Position numbers and translations under genes: made by a program
Notes under the pieces: generated by a model
Database searches by the model: none
Seen by the model: the letters and a program-made list of their open reading frames with translations, nothing else
Told to the model about the DNA's origin: nothing
Assembly: GCA_041485385.1 (NCBI GenBank)
Contig: JBGPJM010000001.1
Location: forward strand, 421 to 64,420
Origin: Phycisphaerae bacterium
GTDB lineage: Bacteria > Planctomycetota > Phycisphaerae > Phycisphaerales > UBA1924
DNA: 64,000 bases
Direction: 5' to 3'
Part shown: positions 48,887-59,162 of the stretch, one piece after another
Layout: each line of letters begins with the position of its first letter
Numbering within the stretch: the first letter of the stretch is position 1

Positions 48887-51565
48887 TCATGGTGTAACGC
48901 GGCCCCGCCATTCGGTCGCGGAGGTGGTGTCGCCCCGGGCCTCGAAGTGCTTGACGATGCGCTCGGCGGCCCGCCGGCGGCGGTCGTCCGGGGTCTGCGG
49001 GCTGGCCTTCATGATGGTGTAGCCGTCGATGAGCAGGGGCTGGGCGTCGTCGAAGCGCCCCTGCATCGAGAGGCACGCCCCCAGCAGGTTCATCGACGAG
49101 CCGATGAGCCAGTGACCGGCCGGGAGCTTCTCGCGCCGGATGTCGAGGGACTCGCGGAGGAGCGGCTCGGCCTCGGCGGCGCGGCCGAGCTCGAGCAGGT
49201 CCCACCCGAGGTTGGCCTGGCTGCGGGCGATGTCCGGATGATCCGGCTCCAGCAGCGCGCGGTTCATCTCGAGCGCCTCGCGGAAGAGCGGCTCGGCCTT
49301 CGCGGCGTCGCCGCGCTCCAGGTAAAGACCGGCGAGGCTGTTGGCGGCCTTGGCGACGTCCGGGTGCGGCGTCCCCAGCAGCGTCCGCGTCATCTCCAGC
49401 GACTGAAGCAAGAGCGGCTCGGCCTGGCGGAACTTGCCCTGGGCGACCAGGAGAAGACCGAGGTTGTTGAGCGCGCCGGCAAGGTCGGCGGTGGGCGCCT
49501 GCTTGAGATCGCGGATGATGCGCAGCGACTCGGTGTACAGCATCTGCGCCTCGTCGAGGTTGTCCCGCTCGACGAGGATGAGCGCGAGGTTGTTGATCGC
49601 CGCGGCGACGAATCCATCGGTCGGCGGGCGCGTGCGCCGGCTGAGCTCGACATCCTCCCGCGCCAGCGCCTCGGCCTGGTCGAGTTTGCCCTCGAGCCGG
49701 TAGACGGTAGAGAGACTCTCGAGGGTGGCGGACACGTCGGCCGGGTCCTCTTCGGGAAGGGACCGGCGGAGGATGAGGGCCGCGGTGAGGTGCTTCTCGG
49801 CCTCGGGGTAGCGTCCGAGGGACTGATAGGTACGGCCGATGGTCGTGCGGACGTCGGCCTCGATCTGGGGCTGGTTGCGCAGGGAGCCGGCCTCGACCTT
49901 GGCCGCGGCGGCGTCGAGGGCGTCGCCGATGGTGGTGTCCTTGCCGCGCGTGTTCGCCGGGTCGGCCGCGCCGAGGACCTCCTGCATGAAATCGTTGGCG
50001 GCGCGGGCGCGGGCGGTCTGCAACGTGGCGGCCTGCGTCTGGAGGTCGGCGATGTGGTGCTGGGTCGCCTCGGCCTCGCGCGCCCGGTTGGCCTGGCCCA
50101 GCGCGATGGTGGTGCCGATCAGCCCCAGCACGAGGGCCGCGGTCACCAGCCCCGCGCCCACGAGCAGGGCCCGGTTGCGGCGCGCGAACTTCGTCAGCCG
50201 GTACGAGACACTCGGCGGGCCGGCGAGGACCGGCTCGTGCCGAAGGTGGCGCCGGACATCTTCGGCCAGGTCGAGGGCGGAGGCGTAGCGGCGCGTCCGG
50301 TCCTTCTCCATGGCCTTCATGGTGATCCAGTCCAGGTCGCCGCGCAGCGAGCGCGCGAGCGTGGACGGGCTGGCGCCGCGCTGGCGGGCGATCAGGTCCG
50401 GGGATGCGCCCGGGGCGGGCTGGGGCTGCGCCGGGGGCCCGGGGGGGGCGGGGGACGCGGGGGGCGGAGAGGAGAGGCCGCTGAGGCGGGTGCTGGGGCG
50501 CGGCGGCTCGGAGTCGCGGAGGATGCGCTGGATCTCGGCGAAGCCGGCGAAGCGGAAGGTGCGGGGATCAAAGGGGGGAGAACCGGTGAGCAGCTCATAA
50601 AGGAGCACTCCCAGGGAGTAGACGTCGGAGCGCGTGTCGATGTCCTGGCCGGAGAGACCGGCCTGCTCGGGGGACATGTAGGCGGGGGTGCCGATGATCT
50701 GGCCGTGCTCGGTCAGGCCGGTCTCTTCGAGGGCGCGGCTGCTGACGGCCTTGGCGACGCCGAAGTCGATGACCTTGGGAACGGCTCGCCCCCACGCCCC
50801 CCCCACTCCCGACGCCCCTGATCCGCCGTCGCGCTCGACGGCCTCGATCAGGACGTTCCCCGGCTTGAGGTCGCGATGGATAACGCCCTTCTGGTGCGCG
50901 TGCTGCACGGCCTCGCAGACCTGGATAAACAGCTCGAGGCGCTGGCGGACGCTCAGACGCCGCTGGTCGCAGTACAGGGTGATGGGCGGCCCGTGGACGT
51001 ACTCCATCGCGAAATACGGGCGCCCTCGGGGTGTGGCGCCGGCGTCGAAGACGCGCGCGACCGAGGGGTGCTCCATCACGGCCAGCGCCTGGCGCTCGGC
51101 GCGGAATCGCTCGATGACGTGCCGCGTGTCCATCCCGAGCTTGATGACTTTGAGAGCGACCTTGCGCCGGATGGGCTCGGACTGCTCGGCAAGGTAGACG
51201 GTGCCCATGCCGCCGGCGCCGATGGTGGAGAGGATGCGGTAGGGGCCGATCATCGTGCCGGGAGGGTCGTCGGTGAGGATGTCGACGCTGGAGTCCGCGC
51301 CCCCTCCCTGGCCCCGGCCACCCCCACCTCCCCGATCCGCGCCCCGATCCCCCCCACTCCTATCAACCACCGCCGGGACCTGCATGAACTGCTGGTCGGC
51401 GTCGTGCTCGCGCAGGAGCGACTCGATCTCGCGACGCAGGGCGCTGTCGGGGCCACACAGGGCGTCGAGGCAGGCTGGCCGCTCGGCGGGCGCGAGGGCG
51501 GCCGCCGCGGCGAAGATCCGTTCGGTGCGACCGTGTTCGGGCATGGAGGGAGACTGGGTGGGCAT
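48887..51565 (-). CDS. Ser/Thr protein kinase with TM helix and TPR domain (paralogue 2)
   Basis: Real start is M225 of ORF 48887..52237 (MPTQSPSMPEHGRTERIF...). IGAGGMGTVYLA, VALKVI, HRDLKPGNVLI, DFGVA and SPEQ motifs. TM helix ALLVGAGLVTAALVLGLIGTTIAL, then TPR repeats. The ATG overlaps the sigma stop by 1 nt. Confidence 0.92.
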   Translation of the reverse strand: MPTQSPSMPEHGRTERIFAAAAALAPAERPACLDALCGPDSALRREIESLLREHDADQQFMQVPAVVDRSGGDRGADRGGGGGRGQGGGADSSVDILTDDPPGTMIGPYRILSTIGAGGMGTVYLAEQSEPIRRKVALKVIKLGMDTRHVIERFRAERQALAVMEHPSVARVFDAGATPRGRPYFAMEYVHGPPITLYCDQRRLSVRQRLELFIQVCEAVQHAHQKGVIHRDLKPGNVLIEAVERDGGSGASGVGGAWGRAVPKVIDFGVAKAVSSRALEETGLTEHGQIIGTPAYMSPEQAGLSGQDIDTRSDVYSLGVLLYELLTGSPPFDPRTFRFAGFAEIQRILRDSEPPRPSTRLSGLSSPPPASPAPPGPPAQPQPAPGASPDLIARQRGASPSTLARSLRGDLDWITMKAMEKDRTRRYASALDLAEDVRRHLRHEPVLAGPPSVSYRLTKFARRNRALLVGAGLVTAALVLGLIGTTIALGQANRAREAEATQHHIADLQTQAATLQTARARAANDFMQEVLGAADPANTRGKDTTIGDALDAAAAKVEAGSLRNQPQIEADVRTTIGRTYQSLGRYPEAEKHLTAALILRRSLPEEDPADVSATLESLSTVYRLEGKLDQAEALAREDVELSRRTRPPTDGFVAAAINNLALILVERDNLDEAQMLYTESLRIIRDLKQAPTADLAGALNNLGLLLVAQGKFRQAEPLLLQSLEMTRTLLGTPHPDVAKAANSLAGLYLERGDAAKAEPLFREALEMNRALLEPDHPDIARSQANLGWDLLELGRAAEAEPLLRESLDIRREKLPAGHWLIGSSMNLLGACLSMQGRFDDAQPLLIDGYTIMKASPQTPDDRRRRAAERIVKHFEARGDTTSATEWRGRVTP

Positions 51566-52167
51566 CAGGAATCTTCGGGGTCGCCGTCGCCCTGGAGCTT
51601 GCGGACCTCGCGCCTGAGCCAGGCGCGGGCGTAGGTCCACTCGGTCTTTACAGTAGTAAGGGAGAGTCCCAGCGCGGCGGCGGTCTGTTCGATGCTGAGG
51701 CCGGCGAAGTAGCGGAGGTGGACGATCTCGGCCTTGCGCGGGTCGCGGGCCTCGAGGAGCTTGAGGGCCTCGTCGAGGGAGATGAGGTCCTCGGGGGTCT
51801 GGGTATCGCCGACGGCCTCCACATCCCAATCGACGCGCTGCCGCCCGCCGCCGTGCTTGAGGCGGGCGCGGCGACGGGCGCGCTCGACGAGGATGCGTCG
51901 CATGGCCAGGGCGGCGGCGCCGTAGAAGTGGCCGCGGGAGCGCCACTGGGCGTTGGGATCGGCGACGAGGCGGAGGTAGGCCTCGTGGACGAGCGCGGTG
52001 GGCTGGAGGGTGTGGCCGGAGGATTCGCGCGCGAACTGGTTGCGGGCGAGGCGGCGGAGCTCGGCGTAGACCAAGGGCAGGAGCTGCTCGGGCGCAGTGG
52101 GATCGCCGCCGGCGGCGCTGACCAGCAATCGAGTGACGTCCTGGTGTGCGGTTGAGGAGGTCGGCAT
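51565..52167 (-). CDS. ECF-type sigma factor (PF07638 / ECF43-like), paralogue 2
   Basis: The last 200 aa of ORF 51565..53433 starting [68 protein letters not shown]. The upstream 422 codons are read-through of the repeat element. Confidence 0.9.
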   Translation of the reverse strand: MPTSSTAHQDVTRLLVSAAGGDPTAPEQLLPLVYAELRRLARNQFARESSGHTLQPTALVHEAYLRLVADPNAQWRSRGHFYGAAALAMRRILVERARRRARLKHGGGRQRVDWDVEAVGDTQTPEDLISLDEALKLLEARDPRKAEIVHLRYFAGLSIEQTAAALGLSLTTVKTEWTYARAWLRREVRKLQGDGDPEDS

Positions 52168-52216
52168 GGTGTGCTGGGGGCTGGCGCGACGGGGGCGACG
52201 GGAGACTGATGACCAA

Positions 52217-52248
52217 TGTCCGCTGTCCATTGTCCACTGTCCACTGTC
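52217..52248. repeat. (TGTCCRY)n heptamer array
   Basis: tgtccgc tgtccat tgtccac tgtccac tgtc, 50-80 nt upstream of the sigma start codon. Confidence 0.75.
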
Positions 52249-52256
52249 GGGGCTCG

Positions 52257-53398
52257 GAGGTTTCGTGAGGTTCGGCGAGGTTATTTGAGGTTCGGGGTGG
52301 GTTTTTTGAGGTTCGATGGGGGTTTTTTGAGGTTCGGCGAGGTTTTTTGAGGTTTTTGGGGGTTTTTTGAGGTTCGTTTTGGGGGTGTTTTTGATGTAAG
52401 TTGTTGTGGCGTAGTGAGTTATGTCTGTTAGCGGTTGCTTGGTTCGGGGTGGGACCTGAAATGCATCTCTCGAAGAGAAGTAAGCAGTGAGCAGAGAGCA
52501 GTAAGCAGTGAGCAGAAGAGAAGACGGGCGTGGGGGGACAGGGGACGAGAAGGGTCGAGAGATTTCGAGAAAGGTCGAGAGTTTTTGAGAAAAGCAGAGA
52601 AGGGCGGGGAAGGGTCGAGAAAAGCAGGGCAAGTTTTTCATGTAAGTGCTTGTGTTATCGATAGTTGTGACCTTTGATGGGGTGTTTTTCGCGAAGAGGG
52701 GGGGGGTCGGTTTCTCGGGGTTTTTGGGTGGTTTTTGAGGGTCGGCGCGGCGGCGGCGTCGCTGCAAGTGGCTTTCTGCAAAGCACTTGCGTTGAGGCTC
52801 GGCTGATGGGGTGCGAGTCTGAAATTCGGGTGCTCCTGGGCAGGGTTTCGGACCGGACGTTCGCCCCCCCTCCCGTCGGGCGCAGCGTGCGCGCGACGTC
52901 CCTCTACCTATGGGCCATCGGCCCTGTTTGCGCGCGCAGAATGGGAAATCGGCGGGGGTCGAATCGCGTAAGTGCTTGTGGCGCAAGGAGAAGAAAATTG
53001 TGAGGTTTGCGCTTTTGCGCGCGCCGGGCGCGCCTGTTCTGCGCGCGCAAGCGCGCTCCACCGTTCGGGGGAGTTGGTTGCCGCGGTGGCCGCGGGTGCC
53101 CAGATCGCCGCGGTGCGTGTGACGATGCGCTGCCCGCCCCCCGATCGTTCGCCCACCCCTCGCTCGCGCGTCGGGTTCGTCAGGCGTCCGCGGTGATCGG
53201 GGACCGGATGCGGGGCGGCGGCCGCACTCCTCTCGATCGGCGGGAGACGTATCCCGAATCTCGGCGCCCGAGCGATCGCGGGCGCACCTGACGAGCCACT
53301 CAGGCGGCGTCCCCCGTCCCCGCGTCCCTCCGTCGGCGCACGCTCCCCCCCGCCCGCTGCGCGAGGCGGCTCGTTGGAACGATCCCCGCGAGTTCAGC
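52257..53398 (+). repeat. Copy B of the ~1.15-kb non-coding G+T-skewed element
   Basis: Collinear with 11558-12728: same tandem words, the same GTAAGTGCTTGTG boxes, and the same core at 52926-53052. Confidence 0.85.
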
Positions 53399-53425
53399 GC
53401 AGGAAGCGGTCTCCCCGTCTCCCCG

Positions 53426-53455
53426 TCCCACATCCGACATATGTGGGATGTGGGA
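53426..53455. promoter_or_regulatory. 30-bp near-perfect palindrome
   Basis: tcccacatccgacat|atgtgggatgtggga has 15-nt arms with no spacer and one mismatch (53436/53445). The centre is ACATATGT. Confidence 0.55.
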
Positions 53456-53738
53456 TGCGCTGCTCAACCCTTCCGGCTGATGCACCGCGCGTGGCGTTCA
53501 ACCACGAATGCGGTTGTCCGCGCCGAGTGGCTTAGTTCGACCACTTCGATGGCGGCTGCGTTCAACCAGCGGCGATGTTTTACGCAACTTTCATAGTCGC
53601 CGCTGCGCGTTTCGGGCGAACCGGCTCGCGGCACCGGGTTTGCCTCTGTACTCAGTCTGACTGCTCCGTCGCCGTTTTCGCTTTCGGCCGGGCATATCCG
53701 GAGAGGCCCCGTTCCGGGGCCGGTGTTATCGCTGCGCC

Positions 53739-55613
53739 ATGGCCAAGCACCCCACGCCATTCACGCGTTCGCCGAAGTCGCCCGGGCGTGCGCGACGGTT
53801 GCGTGGCGAGGAGACGTCGGCACCGCGCCTCGGGCCGCTGGGGCGGCTGTCGCATTGGTCGGGCCTGACTCGGCTGATCTGGTCGTACGGACGGCCCCAC
53901 CGGCGGCTGTTCCTCTTCGGGGCCGCGTTCGCCCTGGCGGTGGTCGCCTTCCGGCTGGCGCTGCCGTGGACGTTGAAGGCCGCGCTGAGGCCGTGGCTGA
54001 AATCGGGCCCCGGCAAGGGCGAGCACACGATGCCGGGTGGGACGCTCTGGAGCCACGCCGCGGCGATGGCCGGCGTGTTCCTGGTGCTGCTCCTGGCGCT
54101 GGGGCTGGCGGACCTGCTGGAGCGGCTGTATTTCGCGAAGTTCTCGATCGGGACGGTGCGTGATCTGCGGGCGGCCGCGTTCGGCCGTGCGGTGGCGACG
54201 GGGGAGGTCTCCGGCTCGGTGCGGTCGGGCGACCTCATCGCCCGGCTGATCGGCGACACGACGCGGATCAAGGCGGGGATGAAGGGGTTCCTTGTCCATG
54301 TCGCGACCAATGGCGTGCTGTACCTGGGCACGATCGGGATGCTGCTGTGGATGAGCCCGCTGCTGGGGGCGGTCTTCGGCGCGGCGGGCGTGCTGTTGCT
54401 GGTGGCGACCTACCTGGGGGCGGTGCGGATGTACGACCGCGCGGCGAGGTACAGGTCAAAGGAGGGGAGGCTCGCCAACTCGATCCACCACGCCTGGACC
54501 GACGACGGCGTCGAGGCAACGTTTGCCAGGGTCAACCGGTCCAGCGGCACCCAGGAAGCGAAGCTGACCAAGATCCAGGGGGTGACGACGCTGTGCGCGC
54601 ACGCGATCTTCGGCCTGGCGGTGGTCGGCGCGTTCTGGATCGGCCTGGCGAGTTCGGCCGGCCGGCTGGACCGCGGCGAGATGATCGTCTTCGTCCTCTA
54701 CGCGATCTCACTCCGGGCGCCCGTGGTGCAGCTCGCCCGGCAGGGCACAAGGACGGGGAAGATCCTCGCGTGCGTCGAGAGGCTGGACCACCTCCTGAAG
54801 CGGACGAACGCGCCCGGCGGGGCGTCGCTCCCGGCGTCGCTGAGCGACCGGATCGTCCTGGAAGGCGTGAGGGCCCGTTCCGGCCGGTCGCACGGACGGC
54901 GACGCAAACTCGGACCCATCACCCTCGAGATCCCGGCGGGTCAGCACGTTGCGGTGGTTGGCCCGCCGGGCTCGGGTAAGACGACGCTGCTGCGCCTGGT
55001 CTCCGGGCTGGAGAACGCCCGTGGCGGGAGCGTGCGGTGGGATTCCACTCCGCTGCCGCTGCTGACGCGGATGGCCTGGTCGGCGCGGGCGCTGGGGTAT
55101 CTGCCGGAGCGGCCGAGCTGGCGGCGCGCGCCCTTGCGGGCGTTTCTGGGAGTCAAGGGCGACCTGCCGGAGGCGGCGGTCGAGCTCCTGGAGGGCTCCG
55201 GGGCCGATCGCGTCATCCGCCGGCTGCACGATGGACTGGAGACGAAGATCGGCTCGCAGGACCTGTCGATAGGCGAGTGCCGCGGGCTCTTCCTGCTCCG
55301 CGTGGTGCTCGCCGAGCCGTCGGTCCTCCTGCTGGACGACGCCGCGGGCGCGCTCTCGGAAGAGCATGCGGCGCGCCTGGTGAAGCGGGTTCTGCGGGGC
55401 TGCGCGGGTCGGACGGTGGTCATGACGCTCACGCGCCCGGCGGAGGTCGGGGAGTTCGACCGGGTGATCGAGCTGAAGAAGGGACGGGTCGTGTTCGACG
55501 GTCCGCCGCTGATGTGGCACGAGCGTGGGTCGTCGGACATCCCGCAGGTGGCCGCGGGCGCCGACGCCGGGCGCGAGGACGAGAACGAGGAGAGATCCGC
55601 ATGCAAGCCGTAA
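53739..55613 (+). CDS. ABC exporter, fused permease/ATPase (MsbA-like architecture)
   Basis: 624 aa. N-terminal six-helix-type TMD, Walker A GPPGSGKTTLL, signature-like LSIGE, Walker B VLLLDD. Confidence 0.85.
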   Translation: MAKHPTPFTRSPKSPGRARRLRGEETSAPRLGPLGRLSHWSGLTRLIWSYGRPHRRLFLFGAAFALAVVAFRLALPWTLKAALRPWLKSGPGKGEHTMPGGTLWSHAAAMAGVFLVLLLALGLADLLERLYFAKFSIGTVRDLRAAAFGRAVATGEVSGSVRSGDLIARLIGDTTRIKAGMKGFLVHVATNGVLYLGTIGMLLWMSPLLGAVFGAAGVLLLVATYLGAVRMYDRAARYRSKEGRLANSIHHAWTDDGVEATFARVNRSSGTQEAKLTKIQGVTTLCAHAIFGLAVVGAFWIGLASSAGRLDRGEMIVFVLYAISLRAPVVQLARQGTRTGKILACVERLDHLLKRTNAPGGASLPASLSDRIVLEGVRARSGRSHGRRRKLGPITLEIPAGQHVAVVGPPGSGKTTLLRLVSGLENARGGSVRWDSTPLPLLTRMAWSARALGYLPERPSWRRAPLRAFLGVKGDLPEAAVELLEGSGADRVIRRLHDGLETKIGSQDLSIGECRGLFLLRVVLAEPSVLLLDDAAGALSEEHAARLVKRVLRGCAGRTVVMTLTRPAEVGEFDRVIELKKGRVVFDGPPLMWHERGSSDIPQVAAGADAGREDENEERSACKP

Positions 55614-56401
55614 TACTTGCGGCCGGGAACGGGCGTCGGCTGGGCGACGCCGCCGCTGGTCTGCCGAAGGGATTGCTTCGCGTGGGGCCGTGCTCGCTGC
55701 TGGAGCACCAGGTGCGCACGCTGCGCCTGACCGGCATCACGCGGGTCTGCGTGGTCGTCGGGTTCGGGGCCGAGGCCGTGCGGGGGGCGCTGGGGAACCA
55801 GTGCGAGTACGTGGTGAACGAGCGGTACACGGAGACCAACAGCCTCTATTCGCTGTGGTTGACGCGCCGGTGGGTGACCGGGCCTTTCGTGCAGATGAAC
55901 TGTGACGTGCTGGCGCATCCGCAGATCCTGGCCCGTGTCGCGGGGGGGCGCGGCAGCGCCCTTGCGTACGACTCGACCTCCGGACGAGAGGAGGAGCACA
56001 TGAAGGTGCGCATCGAGGAAGGGATCGTGCGGTCCATCAGCAAACGGCTGGCGCCCGACGAGATCAGCGGCGAGAGCGTGGGCGTCCTTGCGTACGACGG
56101 GCCGACGGCCGGGCGGTTGTTCGACGCGGCCGAGGAGATCCTCGCTGAGGGGGGGACGCGGGCGTGGGCCCCGGCCGCGGTCGACCGGATCGCCGCCCCC
56201 CCCCAAACCGCCGCGATCCGCGCGGTGGATGTGTCGGATCTGCCGTGGTGCGAGATCGATTTCCCCGACGACCTCGCGCACGCGCGGCAACAGGTCTGGC
56301 CGGCGATCAGCGGGGAGGCCGCGCACCGGCGCGACGGAGTCGTCACGGTCGTCGCCCCGACGTCCGGCGGCGCGATCGCCTCTGCGAAGGAGATCGTATG
56401 A
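55601..56401 (+). CDS. Sugar/alcohol-phosphate nucleotidyltransferase (LicC/MobA-like NTP-transferase fold)
   Basis: 266 aa from the internal ATG of ORF 55037..56401. MQAVILAAGNGRRLG is the G-x-G-x-R-L signature. Overlaps the ABC gene by 13 nt. Confidence 0.75.
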   Translation: MQAVILAAGNGRRLGDAAAGLPKGLLRVGPCSLLEHQVRTLRLTGITRVCVVVGFGAEAVRGALGNQCEYVVNERYTETNSLYSLWLTRRWVTGPFVQMNCDVLAHPQILARVAGGRGSALAYDSTSGREEEHMKVRIEEGIVRSISKRLAPDEISGESVGVLAYDGPTAGRLFDAAEEILAEGGTRAWAPAAVDRIAAPPQTAAIRAVDVSDLPWCEIDFPDDLAHARQQVWPAISGEAAHRRDGVVTVVAPTSGGAIASAKEIV

Positions 56402-57522
56402 GCCTGCAGGTTCTGTTCACCGGCTACGCCCCGGTGCACTTCGCGTGCTTCCGTCCGATCTACGAGCAGATCGCCGGCACGCCCGGCGTGGAGATCTCCC
56501 TTTCCGGGGGGCTGCGTTCCACCCCCCCACTCGTGGAGGGCGAGGAGGACGGCGAGGAGAAGGTCCGGAGTTACGACCATCGCGCGCTCTACGAGCCGTT
56601 CGGCCTGGGCGGGGAGAACGTGCTGAGCGTGGACGAGATCCGTGATCGCGACTACGACGTGGTGTTTGCCAGCAACACCAAGATGATCCTGCCCCGTGTC
56701 GCGCGGACGAGGGTGCAGATCTTCCACGGGATCTCCTTCCGGAACAAGGCGGTCCGGGAGGAGAATCTCGGCGCGGACTTCTACTTCATCGTCGGCCCGT
56801 ACATGCGCCGCGCGTTCGCGCAATCGGGACTCCTGCCGGAGGGCGATCCGCGTGCGCTCAACATCGGATTCCCCAAGACCGACGGCCTTCTGAACGGCGA
56901 GATCGATCGGCAGGAGCACCTGCGCCGGCTGGGGCTCACCGGGCATCGGCCGGTCATCCTTTACGCCCCGACGGGCCAGAGGAAGAACTCACTGGAGACG
57001 ATGGGCGAGGAGCTGATCCGCAACATCGCCTCGACCGGGCGCTACGACCTGATCGTCAAGCCGCACGACCACCCGAAGAACATGTCGATCGACTGGGACG
57101 CGCGCCTGGCGCCGTGCCTGGACGCCCACACGAAGCTGGTGCGAGACCCGGACATCATCCCGCTGCTGCTGCTGGCCGACCTGCTGATCACTGACGCCTC
57201 GTCGGTCTCCAGCGAGTTCTCCTTGCGAGACCAGCCGATGGTGTTCCTGGACGTGCCGGAGCTGTTGGCGAAGGTTTCGGCCGCGGGCGGTTCGAAGCTC
57301 GACCTCAAGACCTGGGGGCGCCGCGCCGGCGTCCTGGTCCAGGCGCCCGACGAGGTCGTGCCGGCCGTGCAGAGCAGCCTGGCGCACCCGTTCCGCTACG
57401 CCGAGGTCCGACGGTCGATGGCCCAGGATCTTTTCTACAACCCCGGGCACGCGACCGACGCGGCCGTCGCCTGGTTCCTGCGGAGTTTCAACGTCTGTCG
57501 GACGGAGGCCGTCGCCGTCTGA
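56398..57522 (+). CDS. CDP-glycerol glycerophosphotransferase (TagB/TagF) family protein
   Basis: M79 of ORF 56164..57522. VILYAPT..., IVKPHDHP, and [17 protein letters not shown] match the TagF-family LITDYSS block. ATGA overlap with the previous gene. Confidence 0.75.
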
Positions 57523-57590: not shown

Positions 57591-59162
57591 ATGCACGCTC
57601 GAACCTTCGCCGTCGGCCTTTCCCTGGCCCTGCTGGCCTCCACCGGGAGGGCCCAGGTCGTCATCAACGAGGTCTTCTCCAATCCCCCGGGGGTCGGCAA
57701 CGACCCGCGCTACGAGTACCTCGAGCTCTTCGGTGAACCGGGCACGGACCTAACCGGGTTTGTGATCGTGGCCGTCTTCGGCGGGGGCGACTCCAACGCC
57801 AACAACATCCCCGGGCCGTTGCCGTCGTCCTGGAACCCGGGCGATGATCTGCCCGAGATCAACGGGGCGTGGAGCCTGGACGGCCTGGCGCTGGGCTCGA
57901 ACGGGCTGCTGGTGCTGTACAACAACACGCTCAACAACAGCGCGATCCCGGCGCTCCTGCCGCCGGCGACCAGCCGGGCGACTTTCACGGCGACGCACAT
58001 CCAGCTCGCCGGCGTGCCGGCGGCCGGCGACATCCGCAACAACGGGTCGCAGACCTACATGCTGCTCCGCCGACGTCCGTTCCATTCGATCGTGGGCGGG
58101 GTGAGCGTGTACGGCGCGGGGTATGCCTGGGCCAAGGGGACCGACCCGGACGTGGACTTCGACAGCCGGATCGACTTCAACGGCGTCGGCCTTCTGCCCG
58201 GGGGGCTGCCTCCGCCACCGGAGATGCCGGTGAACTCGGAGACGTCGGGCGAGCCACCCACGCCCGGCCCGCGCACCCTGGAGCCCTACCAGATGGTGGA
58301 TGAGATCGCCAACTCGGACGGGCGCGGCAAGGAGTACACGCGCTCGACCGAACAGAAGATCTCCGACACCCACGGGGAGAACCCCGACGCCCTGTGCCGC
58401 ATCAACTTTTTCGGCGCCAACCCGAACCGCGGCTGGCGCTTCGACACGACCGGCACACTGGTACGGACCAGGATGGGGGACGAGGAGTTTATCTACGGCG
58501 AGATCCTGGGCGTCCCGGCCATGGACTTCGACCCGATCATCTCCGGCGGCCCGACCGACCCGGCCGGCCCTCGCTACAACATGTTCGGGCAGCCCGATCC
58601 CAACGGTACGTACCTGTTCGACGACCTCAGCCGCGTGGGATATCACCTGACGCCCGGCAGCATGAACGACGTTGACTCGCGCGGGGTGGGCGGGGCCAAC
58701 ATCGTCGAGTTCCGTTTCGTCCGCGGCGACTTCAACTTCGACGGCGTGGTGAACGCCGACGACGATGCGCTGATCACCGGGCGCGTCGGCGCCACCATGG
58801 ACGACCTTGGCCCTTCCACGGACACCAACGGCACGCCGGACCCATCGGACGACATCACGATCACCAACGCCTGGCGATGGCAGGGGCGGGACCTCGAGGC
58901 GATCATGGCGATGCGCAACATGAACAAGACCGACGGACCGGGGGGGACCAACGCCCCCGACGTCACCGCGGCCGACCTCGCCGCGTTCCACGCGCTCAAC
59001 TGCCCCGCCGACTGGAACCACTCCGGCGCGGTGAACAGCCAGGACTTCTTCGACTTCCTGGGTTCGTTCTTCGCGGGAAACGCCGATTTCAACCATTCGG
59101 GAACGACCAACAGCCAGGACTTCTTCGATTTCCTCACCGCGTTTTTCGCCGGCTGCCCATGA
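57591..59162 (+). CDS. Secreted LTD-like domain protein with C-terminal double dockerin-like tag
   Basis: M20 of ORF 57534..59162 ([22 protein letters not shown]). [26 protein letters not shown] is lamin-tail-domain-like. C-terminus is [53 protein letters not shown]. Confidence 0.85.

Follow-up and report, generated by a model that had tools for sequence, protein, structure and literature searches.

Teichoic-acid-type phosphodiester polymers are known from textbooks for Firmicutes and for a small number of capsules of Gram-negative bacteria. Among the known systems closest to the one studied here are the polymerases TagF and TarL and the primases TagB and TarF (PDB 3L7I-3L7M, 8VA1). Here, we describe a three-gene operon of a Phycisphaerae bacterium (assembly GCA_041485385.1, contig JBGPJM010000001.1), which encodes a fused ABC-exporter-type protein (g1), a nucleotidyltransferase of the LicC/PntC fold (g2) and a phosphotransferase of the TagF/TagB family (g3). 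The 64,000-nt stretch of the contig that we analysed is called the window, and position numbers refer to it. The most likely output of the operon is an exported product made by CDP-alcohol-dependent formation of phosphodiester bonds, probably a surface polymer or lipid whose route of synthesis differs from that of classical teichoic acids. The g3 protein belongs to the same Pfam family (PF04464) and has the same GT-B fold as the Firmicute enzymes. It keeps the equivalent of TagF H584 as well as the LITD-SSV motif, and presumably shares their CDP-alcohol chemistry. In contrast to TagF, however, it lacks a TagF-type N-terminal membrane-association region and falls in a tight clade of its own that extends across phyla. 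Moreover, whereas the Firmicute enzymes are partnered by TagGH and by a TagD or TarI enzyme, g3 is partnered by an MsbA-type transmembrane domain (TMD) and a LicC-fold enzyme. Its genome context also offers neither TagO nor a LytR-CpsA-Psr (LCP) ligase, and the sole TagA-family gene is unlinked to the module.

PF04464 enzymes also work in diderm bacteria. In group 2 capsule systems of Gram-negative pathogens, the polymerases and transition transferases Cps3D, Cps7D, Bcs3 and Cps7A contribute to a lipid-anchored anionic polymer that leaves the cell by ABC export; the capsule polymerases are large proteins that combine a glycosyltransferase with a TagF-like domain and tetratricopeptide repeats (TPR), are encoded in kps-type loci, depend on KpsMT/KpsDE for export and start from a poly-Kdo glycolipid as primer (PMC5974469, PMC11666461, PMC10299916). 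The structure of g3 resembles two of these proteins (8qoy and 8a0c), but g3 is a single 374-aa domain that is accompanied by a type IV TMD and not by a capsule locus. A further comparison is offered by the Lic pathway (kinase LicA, cytidylyltransferase LicC, transferase LicD) and by PntC of phosphonate tailoring. The g2 protein is closest to PntC and LicC, and the logic of kinase, cytidylyltransferase and phosphotransferase recurs in one third of the loci related to ours. Yet, the transferase of the module is of the TagF family rather than LicD, and g2 is without the amine-binding acids. The g1 protein shares its six-helix ABC_membrane domain, with a domain-swapped exporter fold, with MsbA, PglK and SbmA/BacA. 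MsbA and PglK are type IV ABC exporters that flip lipids, and SbmA/BacA is a precedent for an ABC-TMD-like fold that works without a nucleotide-binding domain (NBD). In contrast to these proteins, the NBD of g1 is degenerate in both halves of the presumed homodimer, and its relatives either lose the NBD or swap in enzyme domains. The literature searched yielded no description of a TagF-like enzyme that is fused where the NBD would be, nor a paper that combines these families or describes the cassette.

The three genes lie on the forward strand. The stop codon of g1 (53739-55613; 624 aa), a TAA at 55611-55613, lies inside g2 (55601-56401; 266 aa, beginning MQAVILAAGNGRRLG), whose ATG is at 55601, which gives an overlap of 13 nt. 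A Shine-Dalgarno-like purine run, GAGGAGAG, stands 5' of this ATG. The overlap of g2 with g3 (56398-57522; 374 aa) is an ATGA (gtATGAgc), in which the ATG at 56398 starts g3 and the TGA ends g2; AAGGAG, likewise a Shine-Dalgarno-like run, precedes the g3 start. All three genes show the pattern of third-position GC (GC3) of real genes, in a genome with a GC content of 70%. An earlier reading of the letters and translations by a model, here called the sequence-only reading, had proposed three tightly coupled genes with these overlaps; both were verified in the DNA, and the motifs that it quoted are present in the translations of the locus. Its family assignments also held when searched with hidden Markov models (HMMs): g1 matched ABC_membrane and ABC_tran, g2 NTP_transf_3 and g3 Glyphos_transf, all above the gathering thresholds. 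We conclude that g1, g2 and g3 form one translationally coupled operon, in which a conserved and self-contained envelope module occurs in its minimal form.

For g3, the PF04464 match (54.1 bits, cut-off 22.1) covers residues 121-341, in line with its proposed membership of the CDP-glycerol glycerophosphotransferases. The AlphaFold2 (AF2) model of g3 (pLDDT 91.7, pTM 0.90) has a GT-B fold of two Rossmann domains. Foldseek ranks 1-11 are all TagF, 3l7x among them, followed by TarL (8va1), Cps3D (8qoy) and Bcs3 (8a0c). The structural match to TagF has an E-value of 1e-13 and a TM-score of 0.60-0.65, at an identity of ~16%, and a profile of 74 g3 homologues matches TagF at E 6e-10 and TarL at 3e-8. 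The motif KPHDHP (residues 221-226) includes H223, which aligns with TagF H584, the donor-pyrophosphate-binding histidine that is missing in the mutant chain of 3l7m. A stretch of 12 residues at 263-274 was also noted. Towards the C-terminus, LITDASSV aligns with the donor-binding motif LITDYSSV of TagF. The motifs QIFHG, YAPTG and KPHDHP and one further motif of 10 residues are invariant across the 74 homologues. QIFHG (H110) lies at the expected place of the catalytic histidine in the N-terminal domain, in a region outside the HMMER and Pfam alignments, and probably supplies this residue. Hydropathy indicates no transmembrane segment, and g3 is a soluble, single-domain protein.

The description of g1 as a fused TMD-NBD ABC exporter was borne out by its matches to PF00664 ABC_membrane (44.5 bits, cut-off 28) and PF00005 ABC_tran (63.3 bits, cut-off 25). 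A six-helix TMD occupies approximately residues 45-345, where hydropathy indicates ~6 transmembrane (TM) segments, and the NBD approximately residues 380-600. The best NCBIfam matches are CydC and MsbA-related, every one far under its cut-off. In Foldseek, the AF2 model (pLDDT 77) is most similar to Rv1273c/72c, MsbA, TmrAB, TM287/288 and Atm1. By its predicted structure, g1 is a fused type IV half-transporter, TMD-NBD, of the MsbA/TmrAB fold.

The NBD of g1 keeps the Walker A motif (GPPGSGKT) and the signature motif (LSIGE). It has lost the catalytic glutamate of Walker B (LLLDD-A), the histidine of the H-loop (LTRP) and the glutamine of the Q-loop, where LPERP has a glutamate. Hence, ATP is probably bound by g1 but not efficiently hydrolysed. 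The same trend runs through the family. Among 19 full-length members, g1 of the window included, Walker A GK[ST] is kept in all 19. Walker B has Asp-Glu in only 2 of the 19 and Asp-Asp in 15, including LLLDD of g1, while the H-loop histidine is kept in 2 and the Q-loop glutamine in 7. Compared in pairs, the sequences are on average 45% identical in the TMD and 33% in the NBD, and a TMD more conserved than its NBD is the reverse of the usual pattern of ABC exporters. In four loci (L005, L023, L027 and L034), NBD-less TMD genes adjoin the g3 homologue. Single open reading frames (ORFs) fuse ABC_membrane to Glyphos_transf in L025, L031 and L051, and a vestigial NBD lies between these domains in L066 and L077. 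Among the fusions are those in which the TagF-like domain stands directly after TM6, in place of the NBD. Across the module, an evolutionary series leads from an intact NBD through degenerate and vestigial forms to its absence, and finally to an enzyme domain fused in its place. The reversal of identities, the NBD-less genes and the TagF-like fusions after TM6 argue that the TMD is the selected partner of g3, and ATP hydrolysis appears dispensable.

A different remnant was seen in Actinomycetota, where an APH-family kinase has an N-terminal piece of an ABC NBD (L068 7883-9715, L070 8082-9698, L049 5181-6842 and L054 3325-4953). In this piece, LTxSQRLRL resembles a signature motif and VVxDDPTAGLD is a retained Walker B/D-loop, whereas Walker A is missing. 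The kinase gene sits between two NBD-less TMD genes, and its product may dock on the membrane domain as an NBD would.

The second enzyme, g2, matches PF12804 NTP_transf_3 with 49.7 bits (cut-off 27), and its LAAGNGRRLG is a GxGxR nucleotide-binding motif. This confirms both the fold and the motif (ILAAGNGRRLG) of what had been called a LicC/MobA-fold nucleotidyltransferase. Its matches in the PDB are the phosphonate cytidylyltransferase PntC (6pd1), the phosphocholine cytidylyltransferase LicC (1jyk) and inositol-1-phosphate cytidylyltransferase (IPCT; 2xme), and the profile of the g2 family reaches 119 bits with PntC 6pd1 and 90 bits with LicC 1jyk. The IspD score of g2, 18.5 bits, is under the cut-off of 27. 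Residues N100, D102, D124, E132, K135 and W189 are invariant in the family alignment. By these sequence relationships, g2 belongs to the LicC/PntC/IPCT branch of NTP_transf_3 and is probably a cytidylyltransferase that makes the activated donor.

Two acidic residues contact the amine of the substrate in PntC (E104 and E196) and in LicC (D105 and D192) (PMC6697681). At these positions g2 has N100, which is conserved without exception in 28 sequences, and A190; in the family, position 190 holds A, M, L, S or Q and is hence non-acidic. Because the amine-binding acids are replaced, a polyol phosphate or sugar phosphate is a likelier substrate of g2 than choline or 2-aminoethylphosphonate (AEP). 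Neither CDP-glycerol nor CDP-ribitol can be taken for granted as the donor, since g2 is not of the TagD type and not of the TarI type. CDP-inositol is an unlikely donor, as the genome is without inositol-1-phosphate synthase. A role in PntC-like phosphonate tailoring was considered and rejected: the amine-binding residues are missing, and no phosphonate-biosynthesis gene was recognised in the cassette loci that were fetched, although no search aimed at PEP mutase (PF13714) was made in these loci or in the genome.

The module extends beyond Planctomycetota, as a patchy cassette found in at least 11 phyla. Homologues of g3 number more than 1,400 in the protein collection, and the top ones are 55-74% identical. 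In a survey of ~185,000 species genomes, one genome per species, 264 loci encode a relative of g3, with 50-74% identity for the orthologues. We compared the best 80 of these 264 loci, with g3 relatives of 47-72% identity, which fall into 11 phylum-level groups: Planctomycetota, Actinomycetota, Gemmatimonadota, Pseudomonadota, Cyanobacteriota (with Chlorogloeopsis fritschii PCC 6912 among the carriers), Myxococcota, Verrucomicrobiota, Acidobacteriota, Thermodesulfobacteriota, Nitrospirota and Entotheonella. A g2 homologue (36-59% identical) adjoins the g3 homologue in all but one of the sufficiently long loci. Likewise, every module architecture has an ABC-type membrane-domain gene except the cyanobacterial type, which has a major facilitator superfamily (MFS) transporter instead. 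The cassette is self-contained, because the flanking genes vary between loci.

The architectures differ in gene order and in the genes that are added. The type of the window (architecture A), which is mostly planctomycete, consists of a TMD-NBD gene, a nucleotidyltransferase gene and a TagF-like gene, sometimes followed by an APH-family kinase. In Proteobacteria and Myxococcota (architecture B), the nucleotidyltransferase gene is followed by an NBD-less TMD gene, in some cases a kinase gene, and the TagF-like gene; the single ORFs in which the TagF-like domain is fused to the TMD, with or without a vestigial NBD, belong to this type. Cyanobacteria, Entotheonella and Inquilinaceae (architecture C) have an MFS gene and, at a distance, a gene for glycerophosphodiester phosphodiesterase (GDPD), followed at a further distance by nucleotidyltransferase, kinase and TagF-like genes and a second PF04464 paralogue. 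Gemmatimonadota (architecture D) have a putative outer-membrane barrel, a small protein, the TagF-like enzyme, a canonical ABC transporter and a long nucleotidyltransferase. The order in Actinomycetota (architecture E) is nucleotidyltransferase, TagF-like enzyme, TMD, kinase with an NBD remnant, and TMD.

An APH-family kinase is added in about one third of the loci (27 loci). The cyanobacterial loci hold both the second PF04464 paralogue and the glycerophosphodiester phosphodiesterase, and the PF04464 pair could represent a primase plus a polymerase. An alginate-export porin, PF13372 (123 bits), is encoded inside the operon of L005, and a homologue with 29% identity inside that of L031. The putative outer-membrane barrel is conserved and precedes all ten Gemmatimonadota loci. 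A conserved small protein of ~114-125 aa without a Pfam match (L056 5654-5998, with homologues in 8 Gemmatimonadota loci) is encoded between the barrel and the TagF-like gene.

In the g3 tree, the copy of the window groups with those of two Phycisphaerales metagenome-assembled genomes (MAGs), with support of 100/100. Mapped on this tree, phylum labels change 14 times, compared with a minimum of 10 and a mean of 48.5 after shuffling. Recent horizontal transfer as the sole cause of the patchy distribution was therefore rejected, as the tree largely clusters by phylum; an old presence with frequent loss and some transfer fits better. The patchiness is also evident within Planctomycetota, with a single orthologue-level g3 match in 401 sampled genomes and none in the sampled genomes of the same family or the same order. 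Other PF04464 paralogues occur in ~5% of the sampled Planctomycetota genomes. One family (f28; G022, G055, G165, G182, G199, G262, G363 and G376) has an expanded TagF-like repertoire, since each genome has at least four PF04464 paralogues; these are 36-48% identical to g3, and some of the ORFs are up to 1200 aa long. Separately, the g3 orthologues of a Phycisphaerae MAG (L039) and a Vicinamibacteraceae MAG (L047) are near-identical sisters (branches 0.11 and 0.06, support 100/100), which indicates either a very recent transfer across phyla or a mis-binned contig.

How might the module work? The most probable reading, which we hold tentatively because it falls a little short of being probable outright, is that a CDP-polyol is made and that a TMD-docked enzyme then polymerises it on, or transfers it to, a membrane acceptor of universal occurrence, the product being exported by the TMD. 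Gene structure, families and folds, conservation, linkage, domain fusions and NBD decay are shown by the data above, whereas the donor, acceptor, chain length, docking, and direction and energetics of transport in the following account are inferred from sequence, predicted structure and gene context. From a phosphorylated polyol or sugar and CTP, g2 would produce a CDP-activated donor, with sn-glycerol-phosphate as the default candidate substrate; the amine-type substrates phosphocholine and 2-aminoethylphosphonate are unlikely. At the inner membrane, g3 would transfer the alcohol-phosphate from this donor to a hydroxyl group on the cytoplasmic side, forming phosphodiester bonds. Because no primer glycosyltransferase is linked to the cassette across hosts of many phyla, a universal component of membranes is the most likely acceptor, for example a common lipid such as phosphatidylglycerol, through its headgroup. 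In this way a lipid-anchored oligo- or poly(polyol-phosphate) would arise, an anionic chain similar to teichoic acid that g3 probably elongates. A polymer is favoured because of the porins and the paired PF04464 paralogues. Docked on the cytoplasmic side of the TMD of a g1 dimer, g3 would hand over the anionic product for passage across the inner membrane through this TMD, and in some diderms lineage-specific outer-membrane components would carry it onward.

A more far-reaching version, which we consider improbable, is that the ABC TMD has been repurposed as both translocon and docking platform of a synthase-type machine for the secretion of poly(polyol-phosphate), and would represent a new synthase-type export route. 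The vacated ATPase slot would then be taken by the TagF-like polymerase, and in Actinomycetota by the kinase with its NBD remnant. Export would be driven by polymer growth or by the proton-motive force instead of ATP hydrolysis, and an AlgE-type porin would complete the route in some diderms.

Several observations weigh against synthesis and export of a polymer by a TMD-docked g3. The equivalent of the catalytic base TagF His444 (TarL H300) was not aligned by HMMER, and the Pfam alignment also stops short of it. With 374 aa, g3 is short, similar in length to the single-transfer primases TagB, TarF and CpsA, and among the NCBIfam models it matches TarB and TarF alone, and weakly. For these reasons it may add a single unit instead of polymerising. 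Porins of the outer membrane were found in some lineages only, and none is present in the window. The Gemmatimonadota barrel is backed by sub-threshold OMP_b-brl matches only (E 0.007-0.07), and a relationship with AlgE-type porins was rejected, as hhalign was negative and found no profile similarity. The family kinase is absent from the source genome, as judged by tblastn with four family kinases, which makes the supply of the precursor less certain. Variants without an NBD could use an NBD encoded elsewhere. Furthermore, the source genome is a draft of 360 contigs that is 91% complete, and hence the absence of genes from it is not absolute.

Since g3 is small and matches TarB/TarF weakly, the main rival explanation stays alive, in which g2 and g3 add a single phospho-alcohol to a membrane lipid or lipid-linked glycan, such as the lipid A-core, which is then flipped by g1 without any polymer being formed. 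PF04464 indeed includes proven transferases of a single glycerol-phosphate, such as Cps7A acting on a glycolipid (PMC11666461). The fold of g1 is also that of lipid flippases such as MsbA, and the set of kinase, cytidylyltransferase and phosphotransferase in 27 loci mirrors LicA/LicC/LicD and the Kennedy pathways. Yet, the alginate-type porins in two proteobacterial operons and the putative barrels of Gemmatimonadota fit a long anionic chain better. In addition, the module occurs in monoderm Actinomycetota, which have no lipopolysaccharide, and the two PF04464 paralogues of the cyanobacterial loci suggest priming plus elongation. On balance, we regard single-unit decoration as somewhat unlikely. 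A small soluble phosphodiester of the glycerophospho-alcohol or diglycerol-phosphate type, exported by g1 as a solute, signal or secondary metabolite, would suit the compact and self-contained cassette and its occurrence in the metabolite-rich Entotheonella, Scytonema, Chlorogloeopsis and Sandaracinaceae. The g2 family resembles cytidylyltransferases that serve solute pathways, and IPCT is one of its best matches; this resemblance and the two-component regulators that often adjoin the cassette would be consistent with this explanation. However, the fusion of a TagF-like domain to a membrane domain argues for a membrane-associated substrate, and AlgE-type porins are polymer channels. Moreover, we know of no PF04464 enzyme that makes a free small molecule. 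We regard a soluble product as very unlikely.

It is also very unlikely that the operon serves a classical teichoic-acid or capsule pathway, in which unlinked TagO/WecA and TagA/WecG enzymes would make an undecaprenyl-PP-linked disaccharide as the substrate of g3, and the chain, after export by g1, would be ligated to the wall or to a glycolipid. The PF04464 membership and TagF-like fold of g3 would agree with such a pathway. So would the one WecG/TagA-family gene (PF03808) of the genome, at C30 18780-19289, yet this gene lies in an unlinked GT4/GT2 cluster of the exopolysaccharide type that holds no PF04464 gene. An LCP ligase (PF03816) gave no match in the 91%-complete genome, whereas control genomes responded. 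The sequence-only reading had likened the operon to the enzyme set for wall teichoic acids in Firmicutes. Its family assignments were right, and an exported phosphodiester product is still the likeliest outcome, but the match to that enzyme set fails in detail. As a fused PF00664 + PF00005 type IV protein, g1 is neither a two-component ABC-2 exporter like TagG/TagH nor of the KpsMT type; g2 (PF12804) is not a TagD-type (CTP_transf_like) or TarI-type (IspD) cytidylyltransferase. The cassette also recurs without a primer glycosyltransferase in very different neighbourhoods and phyla. We found no second PF04464 gene and no further copies of the module in the source genome. Next to the GT4/GT2/WecG cluster, C30 encodes a protein of 1600 aa (L090 13080-17882, forward strand) with formyltransferase, AMP-binding, luciferase-like monooxygenase and PP-binding domains, which looks like an acyl-activating enzyme related to non-ribosomal peptide synthetases. 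A function of the operon in anti-phage defence was rejected as well: PADLOC matched neither g2 nor g3 nor the associated kinase, and its matches to g1 were those of generic ATPases only.

The neighbourhood of the operon contains no glycosyltransferase, ligase or polysaccharide gene, so the earlier statement that the window holds no obvious primer glycosyltransferase or ligase survives inspection of the neighbouring genes. Upstream, genes for FtsH, a DedA/VTT protein and succinate dehydrogenase subunits lie on the same strand. A planctomycete-type extracytoplasmic function (ECF) sigma factor, directly upstream of g1, and a Ser/Thr kinase with TPR repeats are encoded on the opposite strand. If the maximal upstream ORF is assumed, the intergenic stretch 5' of g1 covers 53434-53738 and presumably includes the promoter of the operon. 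However, no sigma-70-like promoter, terminator or Rfam family was found around the operon, this stretch included. The ORF of the sigma factor (51565-53433, reverse strand, 622 aa) has its Sigma70_ECF domain confined to residues 431-611. Between the sigma factor gene and g1, a ~1.5-kb stretch of low GC (~52000-53400; GC down to 0.59, GC skew up to 0.38) contains a cluster of tandem repeats at 52213-52600, with about six copies of GAGGTTTTTTGAGGTTCGGC plus arrays of 7, 10 and 21 nt. Because of the limited extent of the Sigma70_ECF domain in the ORF, this low-GC stretch is probably mostly non-coding.

Downstream of g3 follow genes for a secreted dockerin-tagged protein, a prepilin-type N-methyl protein, a histidine kinase and a sigma-54 response regulator. 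The first of these (g4, 57591-59162, forward strand) starts 69 nt after g3, and is a possible accessory outside the conserved core. Its product has a signal-peptide-like N-terminus and a C-terminal GC-type dockerin (NCBIfam NF041540, 35.4 bits, cut-off 29). A g4 homologue, with 57% identity, is kept directly 3' of the g3 homologue only in the two closest Phycisphaerales loci, L010 (7179-8780) and L011 (4233-5891). At the same position, eight other planctomycete loci encode a secreted protein with PD40 repeats, and L006 a secreted dockerin/PATR protein of 1151 aa. It is conceivable that the product of the module is bound by a secreted partner.

The chemistry proposed here is known from the PF04464 enzymes TagB/F, TarF/L, Cps7A and Cps3D (PMC5974469, PMC11666461). 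Undescribed in the literature searched are the cassette itself, its spread across phyla, the partnership with a type IV ABC TMD, and an NBD that decays and gives way to enzyme domains. If our interpretation is true, the module extends teichoic-type chemistry to Planctomycetota, Cyanobacteria, Gemmatimonadota, Actinomycetota, Proteobacteria and others, through a compact gene set that does not depend on a primer. If the synthase-type version were true as well, it would add an undescribed, phylum-spanning route to teichoic-acid-like polymers without an undecaprenyl primer. The series of NBD loss makes a long-standing question directly testable, namely how the synthesis of a polymer is coupled to its translocation, and whether an ABC membrane domain can function without its motor. 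Such experiments are feasible, since Chlorogloeopsis fritschii PCC 6912 and Phormidium sp. LEGE 05292 are cultured carriers of the module. For the biology of planctomycetes, the module points to an unrecognised anionic component of the cell envelope in a minority of lineages.

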